Shown one piece after another: positions 2,629 through 32,000 of a stretch of 32,000 nucleotides of DNA. Position 1 is the first letter of the stretch. Each line of letters begins with the position of its first letter. This DNA comes from Trichlorobacter lovleyi SZ (GTDB taxonomy: Bacteria > Desulfobacterota > Desulfuromonadia > Geobacterales > Pseudopelobacteraceae). The stretch spans positions 2,460,001-2,492,000 of the forward strand of contig NC_010814.1 in NCBI RefSeq assembly GCF_000020385.1, given 5' to 3'. The translations under genes and the position numbers were made by a program. The notes under the pieces are model-generated. The model made no database searches and was not told the DNA's origin. It saw only the letters and a list, made by a program, of their open reading frames with translations.

Positions 2629-3983
2629 CCCCCCAAAAATGCCGAGTCCTGTATGTTGATGACGAACCGGCCTATGGACGGCTCTTTTCCCGCGGGATGG
2701 AAGACGATGACCGCTTCAGCATTATTACTGCAACCAGTGGCGAAGAGGCCTTGCGCATCCTGCAGGACTGTCCCGTCCAGATCGTCTTGACCGACCTGTT
2801 GATGCCGCGCATGGATGGCCTGCATCTGCTGGAAGAGATCAAGCGCTGCTGGCCCGCCATCTTTGTCCTGATGTTGACCGGCGTTGACTCCGCCGACAAG
2901 GCGGTGAAGGCGATGAAGGCAGGTGCCTACGATTACATCCTGAAGCCGCTTGATATCGCCATGGTACGGCTGCAACTGGGAAAAATCCTGCAGCACCGCC
3001 AACTGCTGCAGGACACCCTGCCGCCTGCCGGTGACGACTACCGCTTTGAAAACATGGTCGGTAAGGATCCGATCATGTTTAAGCTCTTTGAAAAGATCCA
3101 ACAGGTGGCCCAAAGCGAAGCAACGGTCTTGATCTGCGGTGAAAGCGGCACCGGCAAGGAACTGATTGCCGAGGCGATCCACGCCAGAAGCCGGCGCTGC
3201 GACAAACCATTCGTGCGGGTCAACTGCGCTGCATTGACCGAATCCCTGATCAGCAGCGCCCTGTTCGGCCATGAAAAAGGTGCCTTTACCGGTGCAGCGA
3301 CACAAAAAACCGGTTTTTTTGAATACGCCTCCAAGGGGACCATCTTCCTGGATGAGATCGGGGATATTCCGGTTCAGACACAGGTGGCGCTGTTGCGGGT
3401 GCTTGAGATGGGCAGCTTTCAACGGGTGGGCGGCACAGAGACGATCAATGTGGATGTCAGGGTAATCTGTGCCACCAATCAGGATATGTCAGCGGCGGTC
3501 AAGGAAAAAACGTTTCGCGAAGACCTGTACTACCGGATCAATGTTGTCTCGCTGGCAGCTCCGGCGCTCAGAGAGCGTAAATCGGACATCCCGCTGCTGG
3601 CACATTTCTTTCTTGAACTGTATCAGCGCAAATCAGCCAAAACGATTTCCGGCTTCAGCGGGCCTGCCCTGACCCGGTTGTGTAACTATCACTGGCCCGG
3701 CAATGTGCGTCAACTGGCAAACAGTATTGAACGGGCGGTTATTTTCTGCCAGGGCCGTCAGATTCTGCCGGAGCATCTGCCGGACGAACTGCACAACGAG
3801 TCGGAACATGATTTTTCACTGACGCTGCATGACAGCTCACTGGCCTCGGTTGAGGAATCCTTGATCCGGACCGTGCTTGAAGAAAAGCACTGGCACCTCA
3901 GCCACGCTGCCGAGGCCCTTGGCATTGCCCGCGGCACACTCTACAGCAAGATGGAACGCTACCATATTCAAAAGGATTCCTGA
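2625..3983 (+). CDS. Sigma-54-dependent response regulator (NtrC-family enhancer-binding protein)
   Basis: The tracked ORF starts at 2541, but ATG 2625 forms an ATGA overlap with the preceding stop. It gives MTPQKCRVLYVDDE, a receiver domain. Also has Walker A GESGTGKE, the GAFTGA signature (EKGAFTGA) and a C-terminal Fis-type HTH (HAAEALGIARGTLYSKM). Confidence 0.9.
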   Translation: MTPQKCRVLYVDDEPAYGRLFSRGMEDDDRFSIITATSGEEALRILQDCPVQIVLTDLLMPRMDGLHLLEEIKRCWPAIFVLMLTGVDSADKAVKAMKAGAYDYILKPLDIAMVRLQLGKILQHRQLLQDTLPPAGDDYRFENMVGKDPIMFKLFEKIQQVAQSEATVLICGESGTGKELIAEAIHARSRRCDKPFVRVNCAALTESLISSALFGHEKGAFTGAATQKTGFFEYASKGTIFLDEIGDIPVQTQVALLRVLEMGSFQRVGGTETINVDVRVICATNQDMSAAVKEKTFREDLYYRINVVSLAAPALRERKSDIPLLAHFFLELYQRKSAKTISGFSGPALTRLCNYHWPGNVRQLANSIERAVIFCQGRQILPEHLPDELHNESEHDFSLTLHDSSLASVEESLIRTVLEEKHWHLSHAAEALGIARGTLYSKMERYHIQKDS

Positions 3984-8566: not shown

Positions 8567-9258
8567 GCAATATTCTTGAGGCACTGCGCAAGGCACAAGA
8601 CGAAAAGGGCAGGGCGGCTGATCAGACAATCACAGGGCGCGAATCACTGATTGCACACCGGACAACCCGCAGCTGGACCGACACGAACAAACGGGTCATC
8701 TGGCTGGGTGTTTCCGGCGCTGTGCTGCTTGCGGTAGTGGGCTGGCTGCTCTACGGCCCGTCAAAACCTGCTTCAGAGCCCAAAGTAGCCCTGACTGCAG
8801 CAGCACCTGTCAAAATGCCTGCTGAGCCGACCCTGCCGCCACAGCAAGCACCGCCGCCACCTCAACCCGCCCCTGCGGCGGTTGCAGTCCCGTCTCCTGC
8901 CGTTCAGGCACCTGCGGCGGCACCCGCACCGCCACAGACCAATGATGATGAGGAAAGTTCGCCGCGCCGGAAAAACCGCCCCGTACCAAACCGCGCTGTC
9001 GCGGTTCCCGCAGCTGCTCCCAGCCAGGCAGCGCAGCCGCCTCACAGCGCGGAAACCATCATTTCCGGTGTCCCGGAAGGGGTAAAACTGACTGGCATAG
9101 CTTGGCAGGACAGCCGTAAAATGCGCAGGGCGGTGATCAATGATGTGCTGGTTGGAGAAGGGGCTGTTGTTGCAGGGGCAAAGGTGCTTGAGATCAGACC
9201 AGGGCTGGTACGGTTTGAAAAAAACGGGGCACTATTTGAGGCGGCATTACCACGCTAG
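8563..9258 (+). CDS. gspB: GspB/ExeB-like protein (type II secretion protein B family)
   Basis: ATGA overlap with gspA. N-terminus is MSNILEALRKA. Has one TM (VIWLGVSGAVLLAVVGWLLYG), a Pro/Ala-rich linker and a conserved C-terminal domain (GIAWQDSRKMRRAVINDVLVGEGAVV...LEIRPGLVRFE). Confidence 0.7.
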   Translation: MSNILEALRKAQDEKGRAADQTITGRESLIAHRTTRSWTDTNKRVIWLGVSGAVLLAVVGWLLYGPSKPASEPKVALTAAAPVKMPAEPTLPPQQAPPPPQPAPAAVAVPSPAVQAPAAAPAPPQTNDDEESSPRRKNRPVPNRAVAVPAAAPSQAAQPPHSAETIISGVPEGVKLTGIAWQDSRKMRRAVINDVLVGEGAVVAGAKVLEIRPGLVRFEKNGALFEAALPR

Positions 9259-13642: not shown

Positions 13643-13717
13643 TGGCAGGGGTGCCAGGATTCGAACCTAGGAATGCCGGAATCAAAATCCGGTGCCTTAC
13701 CGCTTGGCGACACCCCT
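13643..13717 (-). tRNA. tRNA-Gln (anticodon UUG)
   Basis: Reverse complement reads AGGGGTGTCGCCAAGCGGTAAGGCACCGGATTTTGATTCCGGCATTCCTAGGTTCGAATCCTGGCACCCCTGCCA. Acceptor stem is AGGGGTG/CACCCCT, anticodon stem CCGGA/TCCGG, loop TTTTGAT, T-loop TTCGAAT, with encoded CCA. Confidence 0.9.
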
Positions 13718-14327: not shown

Positions 14328-15071
14328 TTACAGGTTTTCGTTGTTTTTAAAGACACCCAGCGGGAAGTAGGGAATCATTTCACTGCCCACCCGCTCATTG
14401 GCTGCCAGCGGATTCATACCCCAGTTGGTGGGGCAGGCTGCCAGCGCCTCAATAAAGGCAAAGCCCTTGCCTTCCACCTGATACTGGAAGGCGTTTTTGA
14501 TGATCTTCTTGGCCTGCAGTACATTTTTAGGACTGTTCAGGGCCACCCGGGCCGAGTAGGCCACGCCATCCAGGTTGGAAAGCAGCTCTGCCATCTTGAA
14601 CGGCTTGCCGTCATTGGCCACATCCCTGCCATTGGGTGAGGTTGAGGTCTTCTGGCCCGGCATGGTGGTAGGGGCCATCTGGCCGCCGGTCATGCCGTAG
14701 GTGGTGTTGTTGACAAAGATCACCGTGATCTTCTCGCCACGGTTGGCAGCATGGATAATCTCGGAGGTACCGATGGCAGCCAGGTCACCATCTCCCTGGT
14801 AGGTAAACACGATCCGGTCAGGCCGGGCCCGCTTGACACCGGTGGCAACTGCCGGAGCGCGACCATGGGGAGATTCCACCACATCAATATTAAAATAGCC
14901 GTACAGGAACACCGAGCAGCCCACCGAGGCGCAGCCAATGGTCTTATCGACAATACCAAAACTGTCCATCGCCTCAGCAACCAGACGGTGGATTGAACCA
15001 TGGTGACAGCCGGGGCAGAAATGGGTCTGAACATCTTTTAAACTAACCGGTTTGGAAAATACCTGCTTCAT
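14328..15071 (-). CDS. 2-oxoacid:ferredoxin oxidoreductase beta subunit (TPP-binding)
   Basis: 247 aa. Motifs: CPGCHHG, and TPP motif GDGDLAAIG...[11 protein letters not shown]. Confidence 0.85.
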
Positions 15072-26793: not shown

Positions 26794-26868
<75 letters not shown>

Positions 26869-26877
26869 TACAAATAC

Positions 26878-26904
26878 AAGGAATCCCTAGGGATTCCTTT
26901 TTTT
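26878..26904 (+). terminator. Rho-independent terminator after tRNA-Gly
   Basis: AAGGAATCCC (26878-26887) pairs with GGGATTCCTT (26890-26899), followed by a T-run to 26904. Confidence 0.7.
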
Positions 26905-26955
26905 GTACGCTTTTTTTTGACCATTTTCAGCCTCATTTTGGTCAAAACGGGCGCT

Positions 26956-28437
26956 TTATTTATTGTCGCTGATTGGGGCACCATATCCATCGGCTGCTCC
27001 ACAACTGATGCTTTGCGGCAAGGCAACCAGTGCACACCCTGGTTGCGAAACCTGATCCTGCTGCGGCTTATCATCCCTGATCTCGGTTGCCAGCATACTG
27101 GCGAGGGTTTTGATAACATCAGGCGTCATGCCGCTTGCCGCTGTCAAATCAACCCCCCGTTCCTGCAGATATATCGCCGCAAATGCACGTTTGAACTCCT
27201 CAGGCTCCATAATATCGCGTCCCAGGTGCTCCAGGATCGCCTCGCGTTCCTCCAGCAAGCCTTCCCGGAATTCACCGTAGGTGTCCTCCGTCAACCCCGA
27301 CCGCGATGAATGGCCGACCATGTTTTTCAACCTTGCCGAATCGATCCCCAGCAACACCATCCAACCGACAAAAGTATGCCTCAGACTGTACATATCGCGG
27401 TGCGGCAAGCCAGATGACTTCAGTGCAAGGCCCCAAATTTTCTTTAAAATGGTGCTGTAGTTGAGTGGTGTGGCACCATCATCCATAGTGAACACATACT
27501 CAGTCTTGGACGAATTGACAGCTTGCATGATGCTAACACGCAACCGATCTGTGAGCTTGATTTTCCGGCCACGGAAGATTGTTTTGAGCTTGCTTTTCTC
27601 TTCACCACGTGAAATTGAGCGCTTAATATCAATGTATGCATCATGTATGCAGTCTTTTTTTAATCCTTTAAGCTCAGAGAAAATCATACCCATGCGCATT
27701 GCCTCAAACAATGGACGATAGTGCTCTGGCACATGGACAATAAAATGCTGCCACTCGCTTAGCAACCACACTTCACGCGGCTTGTGCCTGATGTCGCCAT
27801 CATCATCAAACATCGCCTCAATTTTTTTGATTCGGCGGAATGCTGGTGGAAATGGATCAGACAACTGCCACTTGTTGTCAGCATTTGCCTCAGTAAATAT
27901 TCGACGCACCAAGTTCAAAATATTTCGCATGCGTTTGGCAGATAAAAACTTACCGGCGTTTTTCCCACCCTGATGTTTGAGATTACGCACAAACACCTTG
28001 AGGAGCGTTGGCGTCAACTGACCAAAGGTGAGATCGCCGATCATCGGGTAGATTCTTGACCTCAACATTTCAGCGTAGTCCGATTTTGTGGTGGTTGATA
28101 GTGTTTTAGCCTCCTCTTCAAACCACTGTCTACCATATTCTTCGAGCGTAACATCACTGGATTTGATCACCGGCAAGCCAAACAGGCTCCGCTCTATTGA
28201 AGAAAACTTCTCAATGTCAGCCTGTTTGGCAAAAGGAAAATACTCCTTGAAACGGAATGTCTGATCATCAAGTGCAACACCGATCTTGTTGAGAAACAGA
28301 ACCAGATTATGTCTATTTTCTGGTGTATCTTTTTTCCCGCTCGCCAAGCGCACCCGCTCGTTGTAAATCCTGCAGTCGATATACAGCTTGTTTCCAATCT
28401 CCCTGATACTTCCAAATTCTGGATGTTTTGAAACCAT
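26956..28437 (-). CDS. int: Tyrosine-type site-specific integrase (phage integrase family) with N-terminal arm-binding-like domain and a long C-terminal tail
   Basis: 493 aa. The catalytic region contains ...MYSLRHTFVGWMVLLG...MVGHSSRSGLTEDTYGEF (R, H-x-x-R, H and Y signatures). AAGGAG lies upstream of ATG 28437. 106 residues follow the presumed catalytic Tyr. Confidence 0.85.
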   Translation of the reverse strand: MVSKHPEFGSIREIGNKLYIDCRIYNERVRLASGKKDTPENRHNLVLFLNKIGVALDDQTFRFKEYFPFAKQADIEKFSSIERSLFGLPVIKSSDVTLEEYGRQWFEEEAKTLSTTTKSDYAEMLRSRIYPMIGDLTFGQLTPTLLKVFVRNLKHQGGKNAGKFLSAKRMRNILNLVRRIFTEANADNKWQLSDPFPPAFRRIKKIEAMFDDDGDIRHKPREVWLLSEWQHFIVHVPEHYRPLFEAMRMGMIFSELKGLKKDCIHDAYIDIKRSISRGEEKSKLKTIFRGRKIKLTDRLRVSIMQAVNSSKTEYVFTMDDGATPLNYSTILKKIWGLALKSSGLPHRDMYSLRHTFVGWMVLLGIDSARLKNMVGHSSRSGLTEDTYGEFREGLLEEREAILEHLGRDIMEPEEFKRAFAAIYLQERGVDLTAASGMTPDVIKTLASMLATEIRDDKPQQDQVSQPGCALVALPQSISCGAADGYGAPISDNK

Positions 28438-28522: not shown

Positions 28523-28912
28523 TCAGAGGATAAATGCCGGTCTTCTTTTAGTGATCTTTGTTACTGCTGGTTCACGCTTATTTCTGGCAGTTTTTTCTTT
28601 AACCAGAGTGTCCGCCTGAGCCGTTGCTTGCTGCACCAGTTCTTTTGCAGGATTGTGACTCGCAGTAAATTCAAATTCACCTTTTTGATTGATCAACAAA
28701 TCACTAAACAGCCCCATCTGACGCAACTTTTGGTCACGCGCAATCATTTCTCGACATGGCCAATAAAATTTCATTTCGCTGCCATCCCGGATATAATCAA
28801 CACTGTCTATGTATTGTCCGCTTTTTACCCGATTGAATACTGAAGTGCGACCAAGCTTGCGTCGCTCACAGTATTCATCAAGCGTCAATATGTCGGTTGT
28901 GATTAGAGCCAA
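28523..28912 (-). CDS. Excisionase-like / small DNA-binding protein (putative Xis)
   Basis: 129 aa located immediately upstream of int on the same strand. HTH-like segment is LTLDEYCERRKLGRTSVFNRVKSGQY, with a basic C-terminal tail. The tracked start is TTG and no in-frame ATG is nearby, so the start is uncertain. Confidence 0.5.
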   Translation of the reverse strand: MALITTDILTLDEYCERRKLGRTSVFNRVKSGQYIDSVDYIRDGSEMKFYWPCREMIARDQKLRQMGLFSDLLINQKGEFEFTASHNPAKELVQQATAQADTLVKEKTARNKREPAVTKITKRRPAFIL

Positions 28913-29301: not shown

Positions 29302-29610
29302 GTGACGAAACGCGTTGCCTATAACCTTTACCTCTCTTTACCCTTACACCGTCAGATGACCCGACTGACCGAAGCCGGCTTGTCGGCGTCAGCAGTCGCG
29401 CGGTTGGCCGTACAAAAACGGCCTATCATCCTGCCAGATGGCGACGATGCAAGCTGTCCGGTACGCACCACAATTTATGTCGGCAGTGACACTACAGCTG
29501 TACTGACAGAGTTGGCCAGTGCCCATGGCGTGAGCAAAGCAGAGGTGTTACGGCGATTATTAACTGCCTATCTCGATGCAAACCGTGACTGCATTAATGC
29601 TCTTTTTTGA
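29302..29610 (+). CDS. Tandem ribbon-helix-helix (CopG/Arc-like) DNA-binding protein
   Basis: GTG 29302 is preferred because GGAG lies 5 nt upstream. The alternatives TTG 29281 and ATG 29356 lack an SD. There are two RHH-like modules: KRVAYNLYLSLPLHRQMTRLTEAGLSASAVARLAV and RTTIYVGSDTTAVLTELASAHGVSKAEVLRRLLTAYL. Confidence 0.55.
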   Translation: MTKRVAYNLYLSLPLHRQMTRLTEAGLSASAVARLAVQKRPIILPDGDDASCPVRTTIYVGSDTTAVLTELASAHGVSKAEVLRRLLTAYLDANRDCINALF

Positions 29611-29693: not shown

Positions 29694-29891
29694 ATGGTTG
29701 ATTTGGTGGGCAGATATCACGATCTATTCCGGCTAACGGCTGAATACAGCCTACTACCGGCACATTTGCTAGCCGTAGCACACTGGCACGGTCTGGCTAC
29801 CTGCGTTGGTTGTCTAGCTCTTGCAGCCCACGTCATTGCGGCAATTGGTCATAACAAGGGTAAACGTCATCAAGGCGCTGTCGAGGCATAA
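29694..29891 (+). CDS. Small hydrophobic His/Cys-rich protein of unknown function
   Basis: 65 aa with a strong SD (TTAAGGAGAACAT-ATG). The hydrophobic core is LLPAHLLAVAHWHGLATCVGCLALAAHVIAAIG, and the C-terminus is basic. Confidence 0.55.
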   Translation: MVDLVGRYHDLFRLTAEYSLLPAHLLAVAHWHGLATCVGCLALAAHVIAAIGHNKGKRHQGAVEA

Positions 29892-29892
29892 C

Positions 29893-30513
29893 ATGACTGT
29901 ACTGATGAGACAGACACTGGAGAGCAATCGCACTGAATTGGCAGCGCGTTGCAAGGCTGTCAGCAAGGCAGCTACGTCACAGAAAATTTGCCACCTAAAA
30001 ATGGAGATAGTTAACAGCCAAGTCCTGGATATCCCTGTAGCCGGAAGAGTAACGTCATGGCGTCCACTCAGGGTAGTCGTCACTGTTGCGCACAATGAGC
30101 TTGTATTTTGGGAAAGACTGGTCGATTCACACATCGCAAGAAAGGATGAAACAGGCCTGCGCTGGTCTGCTGACCGATTTATCACCCATAACGACTCTTT
30201 AGCCAAAGTCGCGCTCAAAGAGATCATTGACCAGCAACAGCAACGCGCTGCATGCCTCGACAGTGCCATGCTCACTGCCGGATTGGGAGGTCTCATTGTG
30301 TCGCTGGCTTCACCGGCATTTGGGGCAGCCCTGTTAATGATAGCCCTGTTGGTTGGTCAGGCTGGATGGCTGGTGGCCTACAGACTATCACGTCAGATTC
30401 AAGTTCTTATCGAGTGGCTGGATAGCAGTAAAGTAAGCCGAACAGCCCTTATAACTGAACAACCACCTTGGCGCAGAAAAGGAGTGGCAGGTCATGATAC
30501 TTCCCGGACATGA
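29893..30513 (+). CDS. Membrane protein of unknown function (soluble N-terminal domain plus two C-terminal TM helices)
   Basis: Start set at ATG 29893, with GAGG 6 nt upstream, one nt after the previous stop. The tracked ORF begins earlier at 29821, inside the previous gene. The TM region is LTAGLGGLIVSLASPAFGAALLMIALLVGQAGWLVAY. No recognisable family. Confidence 0.55.
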   Translation: MTVLMRQTLESNRTELAARCKAVSKAATSQKICHLKMEIVNSQVLDIPVAGRVTSWRPLRVVVTVAHNELVFWERLVDSHIARKDETGLRWSADRFITHNDSLAKVALKEIIDQQQQRAACLDSAMLTAGLGGLIVSLASPAFGAALLMIALLVGQAGWLVAYRLSRQIQVLIEWLDSSKVSRTALITEQPPWRRKGVAGHDTSRT

Positions 30514-31216
30514 TCACACCTGGATGACGCTCCAGCTCAATTGGCAAGATGCAGCAATCAGGGGTCTTGGGCCTGTGCGGATGGCGCGGGCATCGGTTCG
30601 TCGAGAAAGATTTCCATGGGTCACAAGTACAAGTGTTATCGCGGCAATCCAAGATAATGCAACTACGTCTAAAAAACTTTGGCTCTATGCAAGCTCGAAC
30701 CCTGACCAGGTTGCCAGGCGCTGGCATCGGCCGTTTCTAATCGCACATAAAGGCGGCATGAGCTTGACTACGGCCGAGGAGTTTTTTTCGTGGCCGATGT
30801 GTGAGGCGATCTGGTCGGAGCTACATGATGCAGATGTTACAGACTTGGTAACAATTGTGAGTTGGCCGTATATTACCAAGAGCTGGGTCCAGCATGCATT
30901 GCCAGGATGGGATATGGCAGACAACGGCGCAGGTGAGTTGACGTTTTGGCGCAAGACAACGGCAAATTTAGGCGTAGAAGCGATGGTCGAGGTGACGCCA
31001 TCAGCAATCAACATTTACCTGGGTGACGAGATTTTTGCGCCAAGGCTGATTCCGGGCGATCTGGCGTTTTCGTTGCCGGCCCAATTTCCGAATCTGGATA
31101 TTATGTATCATCTTTTGCCAGAACGGATCACGCACGAGGCCCGGGCTGTCATGCGATGGTACCGCAGTGTGCTTTTCCGTGCGACAATATTAGAGGCGCC
31201 ATCAGTAACAATATGA
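30494..31216 (+). CDS. Trp-rich soluble protein of unknown function
   Basis: 240 aa. GGAG lies 9 nt upstream of the ATG. Overlaps the previous gene by 20 nt. I recognise no motif. Confidence 0.55.
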   Translation: MILPGHDHTWMTLQLNWQDAAIRGLGPVRMARASVRRERFPWVTSTSVIAAIQDNATTSKKLWLYASSNPDQVARRWHRPFLIAHKGGMSLTTAEEFFSWPMCEAIWSELHDADVTDLVTIVSWPYITKSWVQHALPGWDMADNGAGELTFWRKTTANLGVEAMVEVTPSAINIYLGDEIFAPRLIPGDLAFSLPAQFPNLDIMYHLLPERITHEARAVMRWYRSVLFRATILEAPSVTI

Positions 31217-31225
31217 CTAGACGCT

Positions 31226-31261
31226 ATTGTACGCAGTACAATGCAATTGCGCTTTCCTAAC
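31226..31261 (+). repeat. Hairpin-plus-tail unit R1
   Basis: Hairpin is ATTGTAC-GCA-GTACAAT and tail is GCAATTGCGCTTTCCTAAC. Confidence 0.85.
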
Positions 31262-31311
31262 GCTTTTTTGTCTTTATTGAAGTCGGGATCTTAGTTGGTC
31301 ATTTGCTTAGC

Positions 31312-31347
31312 AATGTACGCAGTACATTGTAATTGCGCTTTTCTGAC
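31312..31347 (+). repeat. Hairpin-plus-tail unit R2
   Basis: Hairpin is AATGTAC-GCA-GTACATT and tail is GTAATTGCGCTTTTCTGAC. Confidence 0.9.
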
Positions 31348-31436
31348 TGGTGAAGGCAATTTCGACGAGAAACAGTCAGGCCAGACGTTTTTTTGTCGTC
31401 TGTTTAGGGCGTAGAGCAAGACAAGCGCAGCCGATT

Positions 31437-31472
31437 AATGTACGCAGTACATTGCAATTACGCTTTTCTGAC
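31437..31472 (+). repeat. Hairpin-plus-tail unit R3
   Basis: Hairpin is AATGTAC-GCA-GTACATT and tail is GCAATTACGCTTTTCTGAC. Confidence 0.9.
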
Positions 31473-31536
31473 CGTTTAACGCGGAATCCCAAGTTTTGCA
31501 GTTTTGGCCAGAAAAAAGAGACGATTTATGTCGTAT

Positions 31537-31572
31537 AAGTAACACGGTTACTTGTAATTGCGCATTTCTGAC
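31537..31572 (+). repeat. Hairpin-plus-tail unit R4 (diverged stem sequence, conserved pairing and tail)
   Basis: Hairpin is AAGTAAC-ACG-GTTACTT and tail is GTAATTGCGCATTTCTGAC. Confidence 0.85.
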
Positions 31573-31606
31573 TGCTATATGACATTGATAATCTGCCATG
31601 CGCTGC

Positions 31607-31861
31607 TCACAGCAATAACTTTTTGCGCCAGTCGATCTTGTAGGGTTTCTGTTGATCGTCTGGAGATATGATTGTGCTGTTATGCTGACTACTGAGGAAT
31701 AGCTGCAAAGCTTCGTCAATAGGAAGGCTAAAGTCAATCTTAGCACTCAAACGGTCATTTGCATCATGGCTAGCAACAATGGCATCGGGAAATGCACTAC
31801 GAACCTGGTTAACTAGCGCATGGATGGTATTACGTTCACCAGACAATCTGAATTTGATCAT
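31607..31861 (-). CDS. Small protein of unknown function
   Basis: 84 aa from ATG 31861 (GTG at 31864 is the tracked start). AGGAGG lies about 10 nt upstream. Its start abuts the stop of the upstream partial ORF (TAGTGATG). No recognisable family. Confidence 0.5.
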   Translation of the reverse strand: MIKFRLSGERNTIHALVNQVRSAFPDAIVASHDANDRLSAKIDFSLPIDEALQLFLSSQHNSTIISPDDQQKPYKIDWRKKLLL

Positions 31862-31863
31862 CA

Positions 31864-32000
31864 CTATGCTGCCTCCTGTTCAGTCGACAATGTTTTAGGT
31901 GTGCGACGACCTTTACATGATCTGACAGTGTTTAGGGGCGTATCAGCAACAGACATGCCGTCGATCGATGCACCGTTTATCGATGCTTCTGACGGTTGCT
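31864..32000 (-). CDS. 3' end of an ORF continuing beyond the window (unknown function)
   Basis: Manual translation of the minus strand gives an open frame from 32000 to TAG at 31864-31866: ...QPSEASINGASIDGMSVADTPLNTVRSCKGRRTPKTLSTEQEAA*. It is translationally coupled to the next gene and is absent from the ORF track because it has no start in the window. Confidence 0.4.
   Translation of the reverse strand, partial: QPSEASINGASIDGMSVADTPLNTVRSCKGRRTPKTLSTEQEAA

Follow-up and report, generated by a model that had tools for sequence, protein, structure and literature searches.

How does a genomic island move that carries an integrase and no recognisable genes for transfer or replication? There are many such islands, and how they move is often unknown. 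The question is raised here by a 32,000-nt stretch of DNA from Trichlorobacter (Geobacter) lovleyi SZ (the window), in which a genomic island is integrated at tRNA-Gly(CCC). Within the island a gap (31217-31606) lies between the stop codon of a 240-aa open reading frame (ORF) on the + strand (31216), whose orphan product is called p240, and the stop codon of a convergent 85-aa ORF on the − strand (31607). The gap holds four copies of a short hairpin followed by a tail, the hairpin-tail units R1 to R4, which a preliminary description of the window had taken for a folded nucleic-acid element, perhaps an origin of transfer (oriT) of the R1162 type used by an HUH enzyme. Comparison with related islands shows that the feature is real, conserved and strongly constrained, and that it belongs to a single gene module in a small family of integrative islands of the Geobacteraceae, hitherto undescribed; the units may form a site of origin type.

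Four units in one gap

A repeat search of the window returned a single four-copy direct family, starting at 31226, 31312, 31437 and 31537 (spacing 86, 125 and 100 nt). The four 17-mers at these positions are perfect 7+3+7 palindromes, each followed by a 19-nt tail. The tail pattern GYAATTRCGCWTTYCTRAC has four matches without a mismatch, all on the + strand, and no further match in the 32 kb even if three mismatches are allowed; shuffled sequences gave 0.09 matches on average, and none of 100 shuffles reached four. Perfect 7+3+7 palindromes were found seven times in the window (about two expected), four of the seven being the units. Repeat, tail-pattern and palindrome searches thus agree exactly with the positions and sequences first given for the units. 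Perfect palindromes of this geometry also occur in the host part of the window (GCGGGTCTATGACCCGC, 542-558; AAGATCACCGTGATCTT, 14716-14732), as does a tRNA-Gln gene (13643-13717); all three are unrelated to the units.

Nine island types and two classes of unit

Eight more island types came to light by protein search and exact look-up, making nine with that of the window (W); the others are referred to by L numbers. The identity of p240 to the W copy is 75% in L064, 33-36% in L057, L058, L062/L063 and L067-L071, and about 20-23% in L076, L078 and L080. Units follow the p240 homologue on the matching strand and with the matching design, 9-54 nt past its stop codon, in every island with downstream DNA except L077, where a distant p240 homologue stands in a different gene context and a covariance-model search found no unit. 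The model, built from 16 units, detects those of the distant islands at E values of 1e-10 to 4e-3. Orientation, order and position past the p240 stop are kept in nine island types, down to about 20% p240 identity.

The four-unit set first described is real, but its copies are not equivalent. The units fall into two classes, A with a variable stem and B, farthest from p240, with a near-invariant one, and always in the order A then B. The B stem is AAGTAAC/GTTACTT in seven of the nine island types, with near variants in L078 and L080, and its loop varies (ACG, TGC, TAC, GTT, GCA). The A stems are AATGTAC and ATTGTAC in the window and elsewhere AAGATAC (L058, L062), AAATAC (L057), AAAACAC and TAATCAC (L067) and AATGAC (L076, L080). 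The A-unit apex is constant (AC-GCA-GT) among the six closer island types; this ACGCAGT is the most conserved part of the A units, the outer stem the least.

Two further stem-loops that had been noted 3' of R2 are present as described, with one single-nucleotide polymorphism inside them among near-identical copies. They occur in the window's island variant only, the gaps of L057, L058, L062 and L067 lacking them, and so fall outside the conserved element.

Paired stems, specific tails and a fixed spacing

In the 16 distinct units of the six closer island types, 98.2% of the stem cells were standard pairs. Five of the seven pairs change on both sides, none on one side only. None of 500 shuffles reached the pairing/covariation score, and sliding the partner by 1-3 columns left 26-46% pairing. 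With the three distant island types included (22 distinct units, 13 distinct stems), 146 of 154 cells are Watson-Crick pairs, one is G·T and seven are mismatches; the one-sided changes in this set are T·T or A·A. The register of the alignment was fixed in advance, an N being placed in two units whose junction is 1 nt shorter, and the cells count sequences, not independent events. Since there is a single G·T pair and the one-sided changes are of this kind, the constraint acts at the DNA level. The symmetric changes, at five stem positions, occur also between units of one island: L067 has the stems AAAACAC, TAATCAC and AAGTAAC while its tails are alike. The earlier claim that pairing is conserved while the stem sequence varies is upheld, the changes in homologous islands being compensatory.

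Family-wide the tail consists of a CG(C/G) or TGC block, four free A/T positions (TTTT, AAAA, ATTT, AATT) and GT(G/A/C)AC, with GTGAC(C) at a fixed distance from the stem. Tails match within an island and differ between islands, and the island comparison supports the view, already taken in the preliminary description, that the tail is the sequence-specific part.

Measured start to start, the last A unit and B are 100, 100, 112, 101, 101, 99, 102, 101 and 101 nt apart in the nine island types, hence 99-102 bp in eight of nine, with poorly conserved sequence in between. At the midpoint, +49/+50 from the start of the last A unit, an ATCCC box is found in W, L057, L062, L063 and L067. The extra A copies, of which the window has two, lie at variable distances (86-128 nt), and the number of units varies from 2 to 4. 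The conserved core is therefore A + box + B, here 31431-31575, and one A and one B unit at a fixed distance of about 100 bp appear to be the functional core. R3, the A unit exactly 100 nt ahead of B in the window, has the top covariance-model score (56.2 bits).

Some variants were seen besides. The sequence TTG(G)CCAGAAAAAA is common to W (31503-31517) and the distant L076 (about 8858-8872), lying some 20-30 nt ahead of unit B; elsewhere the A-B spacers of these two islands cannot be aligned. In L063 (1735-1778, − strand) the first unit has a 1-nt deletion (AAGATACGCATATCTT) and still a 6-bp stem with a 4-nt loop; the deletion would shift the half-site spacing for a duplex-binding dimer, and may equally be an assembly error or mark a decaying copy. 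In L080 a perfect 9+1+9 palindrome (CCATACTATCATAGTATGG, 3471-3489) stands at the start of the gap that follows the distant p240 homologue, ahead of the two units.

Confinement of the units to one island family

The covariance model found no other copy in 401 kb, which included the whole window, the plasmid pPRO1 (200 kb) and 27 kb of host chromosome. The tail pattern, scanned against 185,579 species genomes, hit 48 times, each time singly and in unrelated phyla; no hairpin adjoined any of these hits, and they are consistent with chance. The class-B motif was met in metagenome contigs on two unrelated A/T-rich contigs, apparently by chance, and in viral contigs not at all; blastn of the gap and the pooled units against phages, E. 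coli genomes and plasmids returned nothing. Rfam 15 has no match for the units, and its sole, chance hit (sR35, E 0.68) lies outside the gap.

The p240 family is itself rare, with 33 representatives at E ≤ 0.001 in 1.8 billion sequence clusters; ten that were looked up are unnamed or annotated as 'hypothetical protein'. In a distant relative the gene table gives the order ribbon-helix-helix (RHH) protein, DUF6908 protein, 60 aa, 160 aa, p240. This DUF6908-type module adjoins a 1208-aa helicase/PLD-nuclease/Zn-ribbon protein and a resolvase, and has genes on the same strand after p240, with no convergent gap.

Genes with which the units travel

The p240 gene is the last of a four-gene module encoding an RHH protein, a 65-aa hydrophobic protein, a 206-aa putative membrane protein and p240 (Table 1). 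Beyond the window, contigs with an identical p240 show the convergent operon for a 269-aa and the 85-aa protein (269/85-aa operon), then a serine resolvase and then cargo. Apart from integrase, RHH protein and resolvase, the core island proteins have no match in Pfam, PHROGs or NCBIfam; nor does a family match stand behind the excisionase-like N-terminus, seen by eye, of the 129-aa protein.

Table 1. Features of the tRNA-Gly island in the window (positions 1-32,000)
Feature	Position	Strand	Evidence and remarks
tRNA-Gly(CCC)	26794..26868	+	3' end is the island attachment site; 21-53-nt fragments bound islands in L067-L070
493-aa tyrosine integrase with arm-binding domain	26956..28437	-	Pfam Arm-DNA-bind_2 and Phage_integrase; PHROG 1, E 1e-32
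129-aa protein between integrase and four-gene module	28523..28912	-	excisionase-like N-terminus by eye; Pfam: no match
102-aa RHH (CopG-type) protein, module gene 1	29302..29610	+	Pfam RHH_1, E 3e-7
65-aa small hydrophobic protein, module member	29694..29891	+	Pfam, PHROGs and NCBIfam: no match
206-aa protein, module member	29893..30513	+	hydrophobic C-terminal segment read as membrane-spanning; overlaps p240 start
p240, 240-aa orphan protein	30494..31216	+	units always 3' of its stop codon; candidate recognition/processing protein
R1 unit (A-type, extra copy)	31220..31264	+	hairpin 31226-31242 ATTGTAC-GCA-GTACAAT, tail 31243-31261; covariance model 41.9 bits
R2 unit (A-type, extra copy)	31306..31350	+	hairpin 31312-31328 AATGTAC-GCA-GTACATT, tail 31329-31347; covariance model 50.6 bits
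Two stem-loops 3' of R2	31343..31405	+	CTGACTG...CAGTCAG 31343-31379; CAGACG...CGTCTG-TTT 31382-31405; specific to island variant
R3 unit (last A-type, partner of B)	31431..31475	+	hairpin 31437-31453 AATGTAC-GCA-GTACATT, tail 31454-31472
Mid-box GGAATCCCAAG	31483..31493	+	ATCCC starts 49 nt after R3 start, midway between R3 and R4
R4 unit (B-type)	31531..31575	+	hairpin 31537-31553 AAGTAAC-ACG-GTTACTT, tail 31554-31572
85-aa orphan protein, convergent neighbour	31607..31864	-	second gene of the 269/85-aa operon
269-aa protein, C-terminal end cut by window end	31864..32000	-	predicted three-helix N-domain, ~110-residue single helix, disordered tail

By the type of their tails the islands group as {W, L064}, {L057, L067} and {L058, L062}. 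The p240 identities group them likewise (75, 60 and 58% within the groups versus 31-41% for other pairs), a grouping that the 206-aa protein repeats less strongly. A different one results from the 269-aa protein: the copies of W, L057 and L062 are about 70% mutually identical, and that of L067 is an outlier (40-45%). The discordant groupings of the left and right modules mean that the islands are mosaic, with a breakpoint at or beyond the gap; and as the tail types track p240 and not the 269-aa protein, the units travel with the p240 module. L076, which lacks the 269/85-aa operon, has units all the same.

A KfrA-like 269-aa protein as the binder of the units was considered and rejected: islands whose tails differ have near-identical N-domains of this protein, its phylogeny and the grouping by tail type do not agree, and the units persist without its gene. 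Its match to KfrA_N has an E value of only 0.9, matches to helix-turn-helix domains in a fold search were not significant, IMG/VR holds no relatives of it, and tblastn of the 269-aa protein and p240 against plasmids gave nothing. The 269-aa gene is preceded by a conserved sigma-54-type promoter, yGGCAC-N4/5-(T/C)CTGCA (L001 5835-5960, corresponding to about 32674-32800 of the window; L057 9880-9995; L058 9895-9995; L062 815-900; L067 12110-12260). Three to four copies of the palindrome CAGTAATACTG follow 3' of it in steps of 10-14 bp, just before the ribosome-binding site, and become CAGTAGTACTG in L067, where the 269-aa protein is most diverged; they are probably an autoregulatory operator of this protein.

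In W, L058 and L067-L070 the site of integration is tRNA-Gly. In the window (26880-26947) a terminator hairpin with a T-run, GGAATCCCTAGGGATTCC, lies 3' of the tRNA gene, and the inverted repeats TTTTGACCATTTT / ATTTTGGTCAAAA, kept in L058 and L067, lie beside the integrase stop; they are possible arm-type sites of the integrase. Cargo varies among islands sharing one core: metallophosphatase, HD, AAA and three TPR proteins in the window's island (L001 7444-14253), type I restriction-modification with Fic and DUF1643 in L057 (355-9677), and HU with Czc-type metal efflux in L067 (12644-20666). In L057 (T. lovleyi CP058409, 15120-20810) the end of a Mu-like prophage directly adjoins the island integrase, with genes for a CI-like repressor, a Ner-like HTH_35 protein, a 703-aa MuA-type transposase and an AAA_22 MuB-like protein.

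A possible origin-type site

The comparison shows the anatomy of the units, their covariation, their fixed spacing and their linkage to one module; use as a single strand, a binding protein and a role in transfer or replication are inferred. We tentatively favour, at a level short of probable, the view that the units form an origin-type cis site for transfer or replication, made up of a folded hairpin and a specific tail. The element would be a composite of one A unit with a variable stem and one B unit about 100 bp away, to which the closer relatives add the midpoint box and the window two extra A copies. It would serve as an origin of transfer, or as one from which the excised island replicates. 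The inverted repeat would act as an intrastrand hairpin in single-stranded or locally melted DNA, and the tail, as the sequence-specific part, would be read by a protein of the island's own module, with p240 as the candidate; this reader might serve as an adaptor to a relaxase that a helper conjugative element provides.

Two properties of the stems point in this direction. Since they differ symmetrically within one island, a single sequence-reading dimer does not explain the symmetry. Secondly, the centre of the A unit is more conserved than its outer arms, the opposite of a typical dimer operator, which favours a folded strand. There are precedents for both parts of the design: the MOBH relaxase TraI depends for cleavage on the hairpin as a structure, not on its sequence, and on specific bases next to it, and the nick of MOBF/P/Q/V relaxases lies 8-12 nt from the repeat on its 3' side (PMC6736028).

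A helper may be close at hand. L067-L070 have a common island with four different left neighbours, each ending in a 21-53-nt tRNA-Gly fragment, so elements accumulate in tandem at tRNA-Gly. The left neighbour in L067 (1-6600) carries genes of an F-type type IV secretion system (T4SS), namely TraN, TraU, an S26 peptidase and TraG_N, and is a possible helper. G. lovleyi SZ is known to carry a tra island of this kind in its chromosome, with the Pelobacter propionicus plasmid pPRO1 as a relative (PMC3403914). The plasmid pPRO1 is typed 'non-mobilizable' by MOB-suite, yet has an F-type mating-pair system and a TraD-like protein; adjoining the latter is a 506-aa HD-domain protein (pPRO1 173408-176487, L075 23408-26487), which may be an unrecognised MOBH-type relaxase.

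Several results weigh against a site of origin type. The hairpins are weak as single-stranded DNA (-3.4 to -6 kcal/mol, z-scores -1 to -1.9), their significance coming from the comparison between islands and not from thermodynamics. Template-switch mutation, in which one arm is copied onto the other, can keep short palindromes perfect without selection for folding (PMC8794818). The congruence between tails and p240 may be simple linkage and not co-evolution. None of the island proteins, which these searches covered, matches a relaxase, Rep, HUH or primase family; no coupling protein is recognisable in any island; and the F-type plasmid pPRO1 (200 kb) has no hairpin-tail unit. The AlphaFold2 model of p240 (pLDDT 75, pTM 0.76) has no fold match below E 0.03 in PDB and BFVD, and p240 has no homologue on 72,556 plasmids, a set that presumably includes the IncA/C plasmids carrying mobI. 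Finally, three features resemble a complex on double-stranded DNA: the fixed A-B distance of 99-102 bp with its mid-box, the near-invariant B stem with a variable loop, and the bipartite tail, whose free 4-nt A/T spacer is typical of duplex recognition. Of the earlier preference for a folded element over a dimer operator, the symmetric stem changes stand, while the constant A-B distance and the near-invariant B stem speak in part for the duplex.

A complex on duplex DNA as the main rival

The three features just named are also the best evidence for the main rival, which we consider somewhat unlikely: a double-stranded protein-binding array, be it a centromere-like, regulatory or architectural nucleoprotein complex. 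Dimers would sit on the palindromes, a second domain or protein on the tail, and A and B would be joined across a bend at the mid-box. In the 7+3+7 geometry the half-site centres are 10 bp apart; HU genes occur in the L067 and L076 islands; the single G·T pair and the T·T or A·A one-sided changes put the constraint on DNA; and RNAalifold finds no conserved helix besides the B hairpin. Against such an array stand the three palindromes of one island, which differ symmetrically where one protein would have to read or ignore them, and the A units, whose centre is more conserved than the outer half-sites. There is no ParA- or ParB-type gene, and the only clear candidate DNA-binding operon alongside, that of the 269- and 85-aa proteins, is not tracked by the units, which persist without it in L076. 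The two lines are not mutually exclusive, since relaxosomes and origins are duplex complexes that then expose a hairpin.

A partition centromere of the parS/sopC type was rejected as such: neither ParA nor ParB was found among the island genes, and the units behave independently of the 269/85-aa operon, as stated. Multi-site transposon ends (Tn7 TnsB, Mu MuA, Tn402 TniA) were rejected too, there being no transposase in the islands and no inverted copy of a unit in the window or the loci. As to an iteron origin, same-orientation repeats beside an orphan gene are present, p240 is not recognisable as a Rep protein, and no DnaA box was seen by eye, no formal scan having been made. A sigma-54 promoter inside the gap was dismissed by eye, the GG/GC spacing being inconsistent between islands, and so was an outer helix of the 5' flank with the tail end, which is not consistent.

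A new initiator, or a MOBQ origin?

The preliminary description had looked to HUH enzymes, and had proposed searching beyond the window end for a relaxase, Rep, HUH or primase gene. The HUH reading is not supported: no such gene was recognised among the island proteins, and p240 has no invariant histidine (invariant in its family are R39, R221 and the W100-P101 motif) and no fold match. If the site of origin type is real, p240 and its two putative membrane partners could themselves be a new non-HUH family of DNA-processing initiator, relaxase- or Rep-like, or a relaxosome adaptor, with A + box + B as its origin; we regard this more specific proposal as quite unlikely.

RNA elements in the 3' untranslated region (UTR) of the p240 operon, acting as stability or processing hairpins or giving rise to a 3'-UTR-derived small RNA, we hold to be improbable. 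They would account for the position of the units on the sense strand, 9-54 nt past the p240 stop in every island, and the whole gap does fold slightly better than shuffles (z -2.2 and -2.4). Wobble intermediates would be expected in RNA, however, and there is one G·U-type pair in 154 cells and, in the 16 units, no one-sided change between standard pairs; there is no U-tract 3' of the hairpins, no Rfam match and, according to RNAalifold, no conserved structure joining A and B. In L057 a terminator-like hairpin with a T-run, read from the sequence, lies between units A and B, so there B would not be on the p240 transcript. A structured RNA spanning A to B was rejected, the B hairpin being the only conserved helix, and likewise intrinsic terminators, the stems being A/T-rich and followed by GTAAT... 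and not by a T-run. Tandem RNA repeats of the CRISPR or ToxI type were rejected because the units are not contiguous (spacing 86, 125, 100), have no Rfam match and have no such genes with them.

A true multi-copy MOBQ oriT of the R1162/RSF1010 type, nicked by a MOBQ HUH relaxase, is very doubtful. MOBQ relaxases cleave 3' of an inverted repeat, 8-12 nt away (PMC6736028), and their consensus is NWACCNNTAAGTGCGCCCTYNN (PMC3832669). Sequences like TAAGTGCGC do follow the hairpins in L063, L058 and the window: the exact form is found in one variant only, L063, where GTAAGTGCGC stands immediately 3' of the unit B hairpin, and W, L058 and L062 are one base off, the stretch reading GTAAGTGCGG in L058 and GTAATTGCGC in the window. 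The resemblance of the tail to the R1162 core, on which the earlier reading had drawn, is exact in L063, but the core is lost in five of the nine island types (L057 and L067, which read TAATGTGGA, L076, L078 and L080). The R1162 repeat has, like the units of the window, a 3-nt loop. The CCCT that follows the MOBQ nick is never present in any unit, so that the arrangement of a MOBQ oriT, an inverted repeat and then the nick core TAAGTGCG with CCCT after the nick, is not found. The islands have neither a MOBQ nor another HUH relaxase, and the only conjugative relative examined, pPRO1, has the possible MOBH-type HD-domain protein beside its TraD-like protein. That the units may work like a relaxase site is distinct from membership among MOBQ origins, which their sequences do not support.

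Recombination site or selfish repeat?

We give equally little credence to a secondary recombination site, or what is left of a former island junction, in which case the gap would be the seam of two fused elements. The idea owes its existence to the differing phylogenies of the left and right modules, which put a breakpoint at or near the gap; to the mid-box (T)CGAATCCC, which resembles the tRNA-Gly T-loop part of the att core TTCGAATCCCGTTTCCCGCTCCA; and to some 5' flanks of units (AAAATGGTC, TTTTGGTC), which resemble the inverted repeats next to the integrase stop. But no gap contains a copy of the att core within 6-7 mismatches, the WWWTGGTC motif is also scattered elsewhere in the islands, nothing that corresponds to the hairpin-tail units is found at the real att sites, and the arrangement is stable across nine diverged island types. 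Integrase arm sites in the gap were rejected, the motif being too common elsewhere and the gaps lacking an att-core copy.

Least credible of all is a selfish or structural repeat without an island role, of the REP/RAYT type or a miniature derived from IS200/IS605, whose ends share the hairpin with conserved flank and whose copy number might vary as here (2-4): the hits in other genomes are chance-like and lack the hairpin, the units are confined to one gap within the 401 kb and are not the generic genome-wide REP family that would have deprived them of novelty, their position, order and spacing are fixed, and no TnpA, RAYT or other Y1 HUH gene was found among the island proteins.

Implications

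The locus thus offers a compact, constrained cis-element tied to an orphan module that recurs with restriction-modification, metal-efflux and uncharacterised cargo. A fragment of about 140 bp and one or two proteins would be a testable handle on island mobility in the Geobacteraceae, which are used in bioremediation. Should p240 act on the units, it would represent a new DNA-processing or adaptor family. Should it moreover be a new initiator, the system would be a new one for mobilisation or replication, in which the hairpin is the structure and the tail the address that diversifies between islands. Should p240 not act on them, the units would still be a clean natural case of stem covariation at the DNA level with a fixed two-site geometry. 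The general design, a hairpin with a recognition tail on a mobile element, is of a kind already known, and the clade is narrow.

Comparison with known systems

Same-orientation repeats that bear palindromes are found in F sopC, P1 parS and the lambda ori iterons, and in P1 parS heptamer and hexamer boxes are arranged around an IHF bend. The units share with these sites the palindromic direct repeats and the two kinds of box, and the mid-box may correspond to the bend site between the halves of P1 parS; unlike in these sites, where the half-sites are conserved because the protein reads them, the stems here differ within one island, and the islands have no ParA/ParB, SopA/SopB or O-type gene. 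The RSF1010 primase sites ssiA and ssiB and single-strand initiation signals consist of a hairpin and a single-stranded tail on one strand. This is the hairpin-and-tail design of the units, in islands without a primase gene.

Relaxase sites (MOBF/P/Q/V, MOBH) are alike in that the inverted repeat is needed as a structure, the flank is sequence-specific and the polarity is fixed (PMC6736028). They are unlike in that no relaxase is recognisable here, the MOBQ core is not kept, the stems are 7 bp long and A/T-rich, and two unit classes, in up to four copies, stand at a fixed distance of about 100 bp.

In the oriT mimics of the pWBG749 family, on staphylococcal plasmids, an inverted-repeat structure is conserved and diverged arms set specificity through the RHH factor SmpO, and pWBG762 carries three oriT mimics of different subtype (PMC8136818). 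The island module likewise begins with an RHH gene. Sequences and hosts are unrelated, and in the pWBG749 family the nick site lies in a conserved core and the relaxase is known.

Mobilizable islands of Vibrio have a MobI-like adaptor gene and, next to it, an oriT of their own, and rely on IncA/C plasmids for the MOBH relaxase and the mating pore (PMC5397120); mobilizable genomic islands (MGIs) that mimic the oriT of SXT belong to the same class of comparison. Our island differs from MGIVchHai6 and MGIVmi1 in that the site lies downstream of the gene and not upstream, and in that p240 has no similarity to plasmid proteins. Like them it is a small island with an integrase and without a relaxase, in which a gene for a protein of unknown fold stands beside a large intergenic region, proposed there as oriT; and where their helper is a conjugative element with a MOBH relaxase, an element with an F-type T4SS shares the attachment site here. 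The parallels in helper and oriT mimicry are analogies and not tests, and among documented designs the Vibrio islands come closest.

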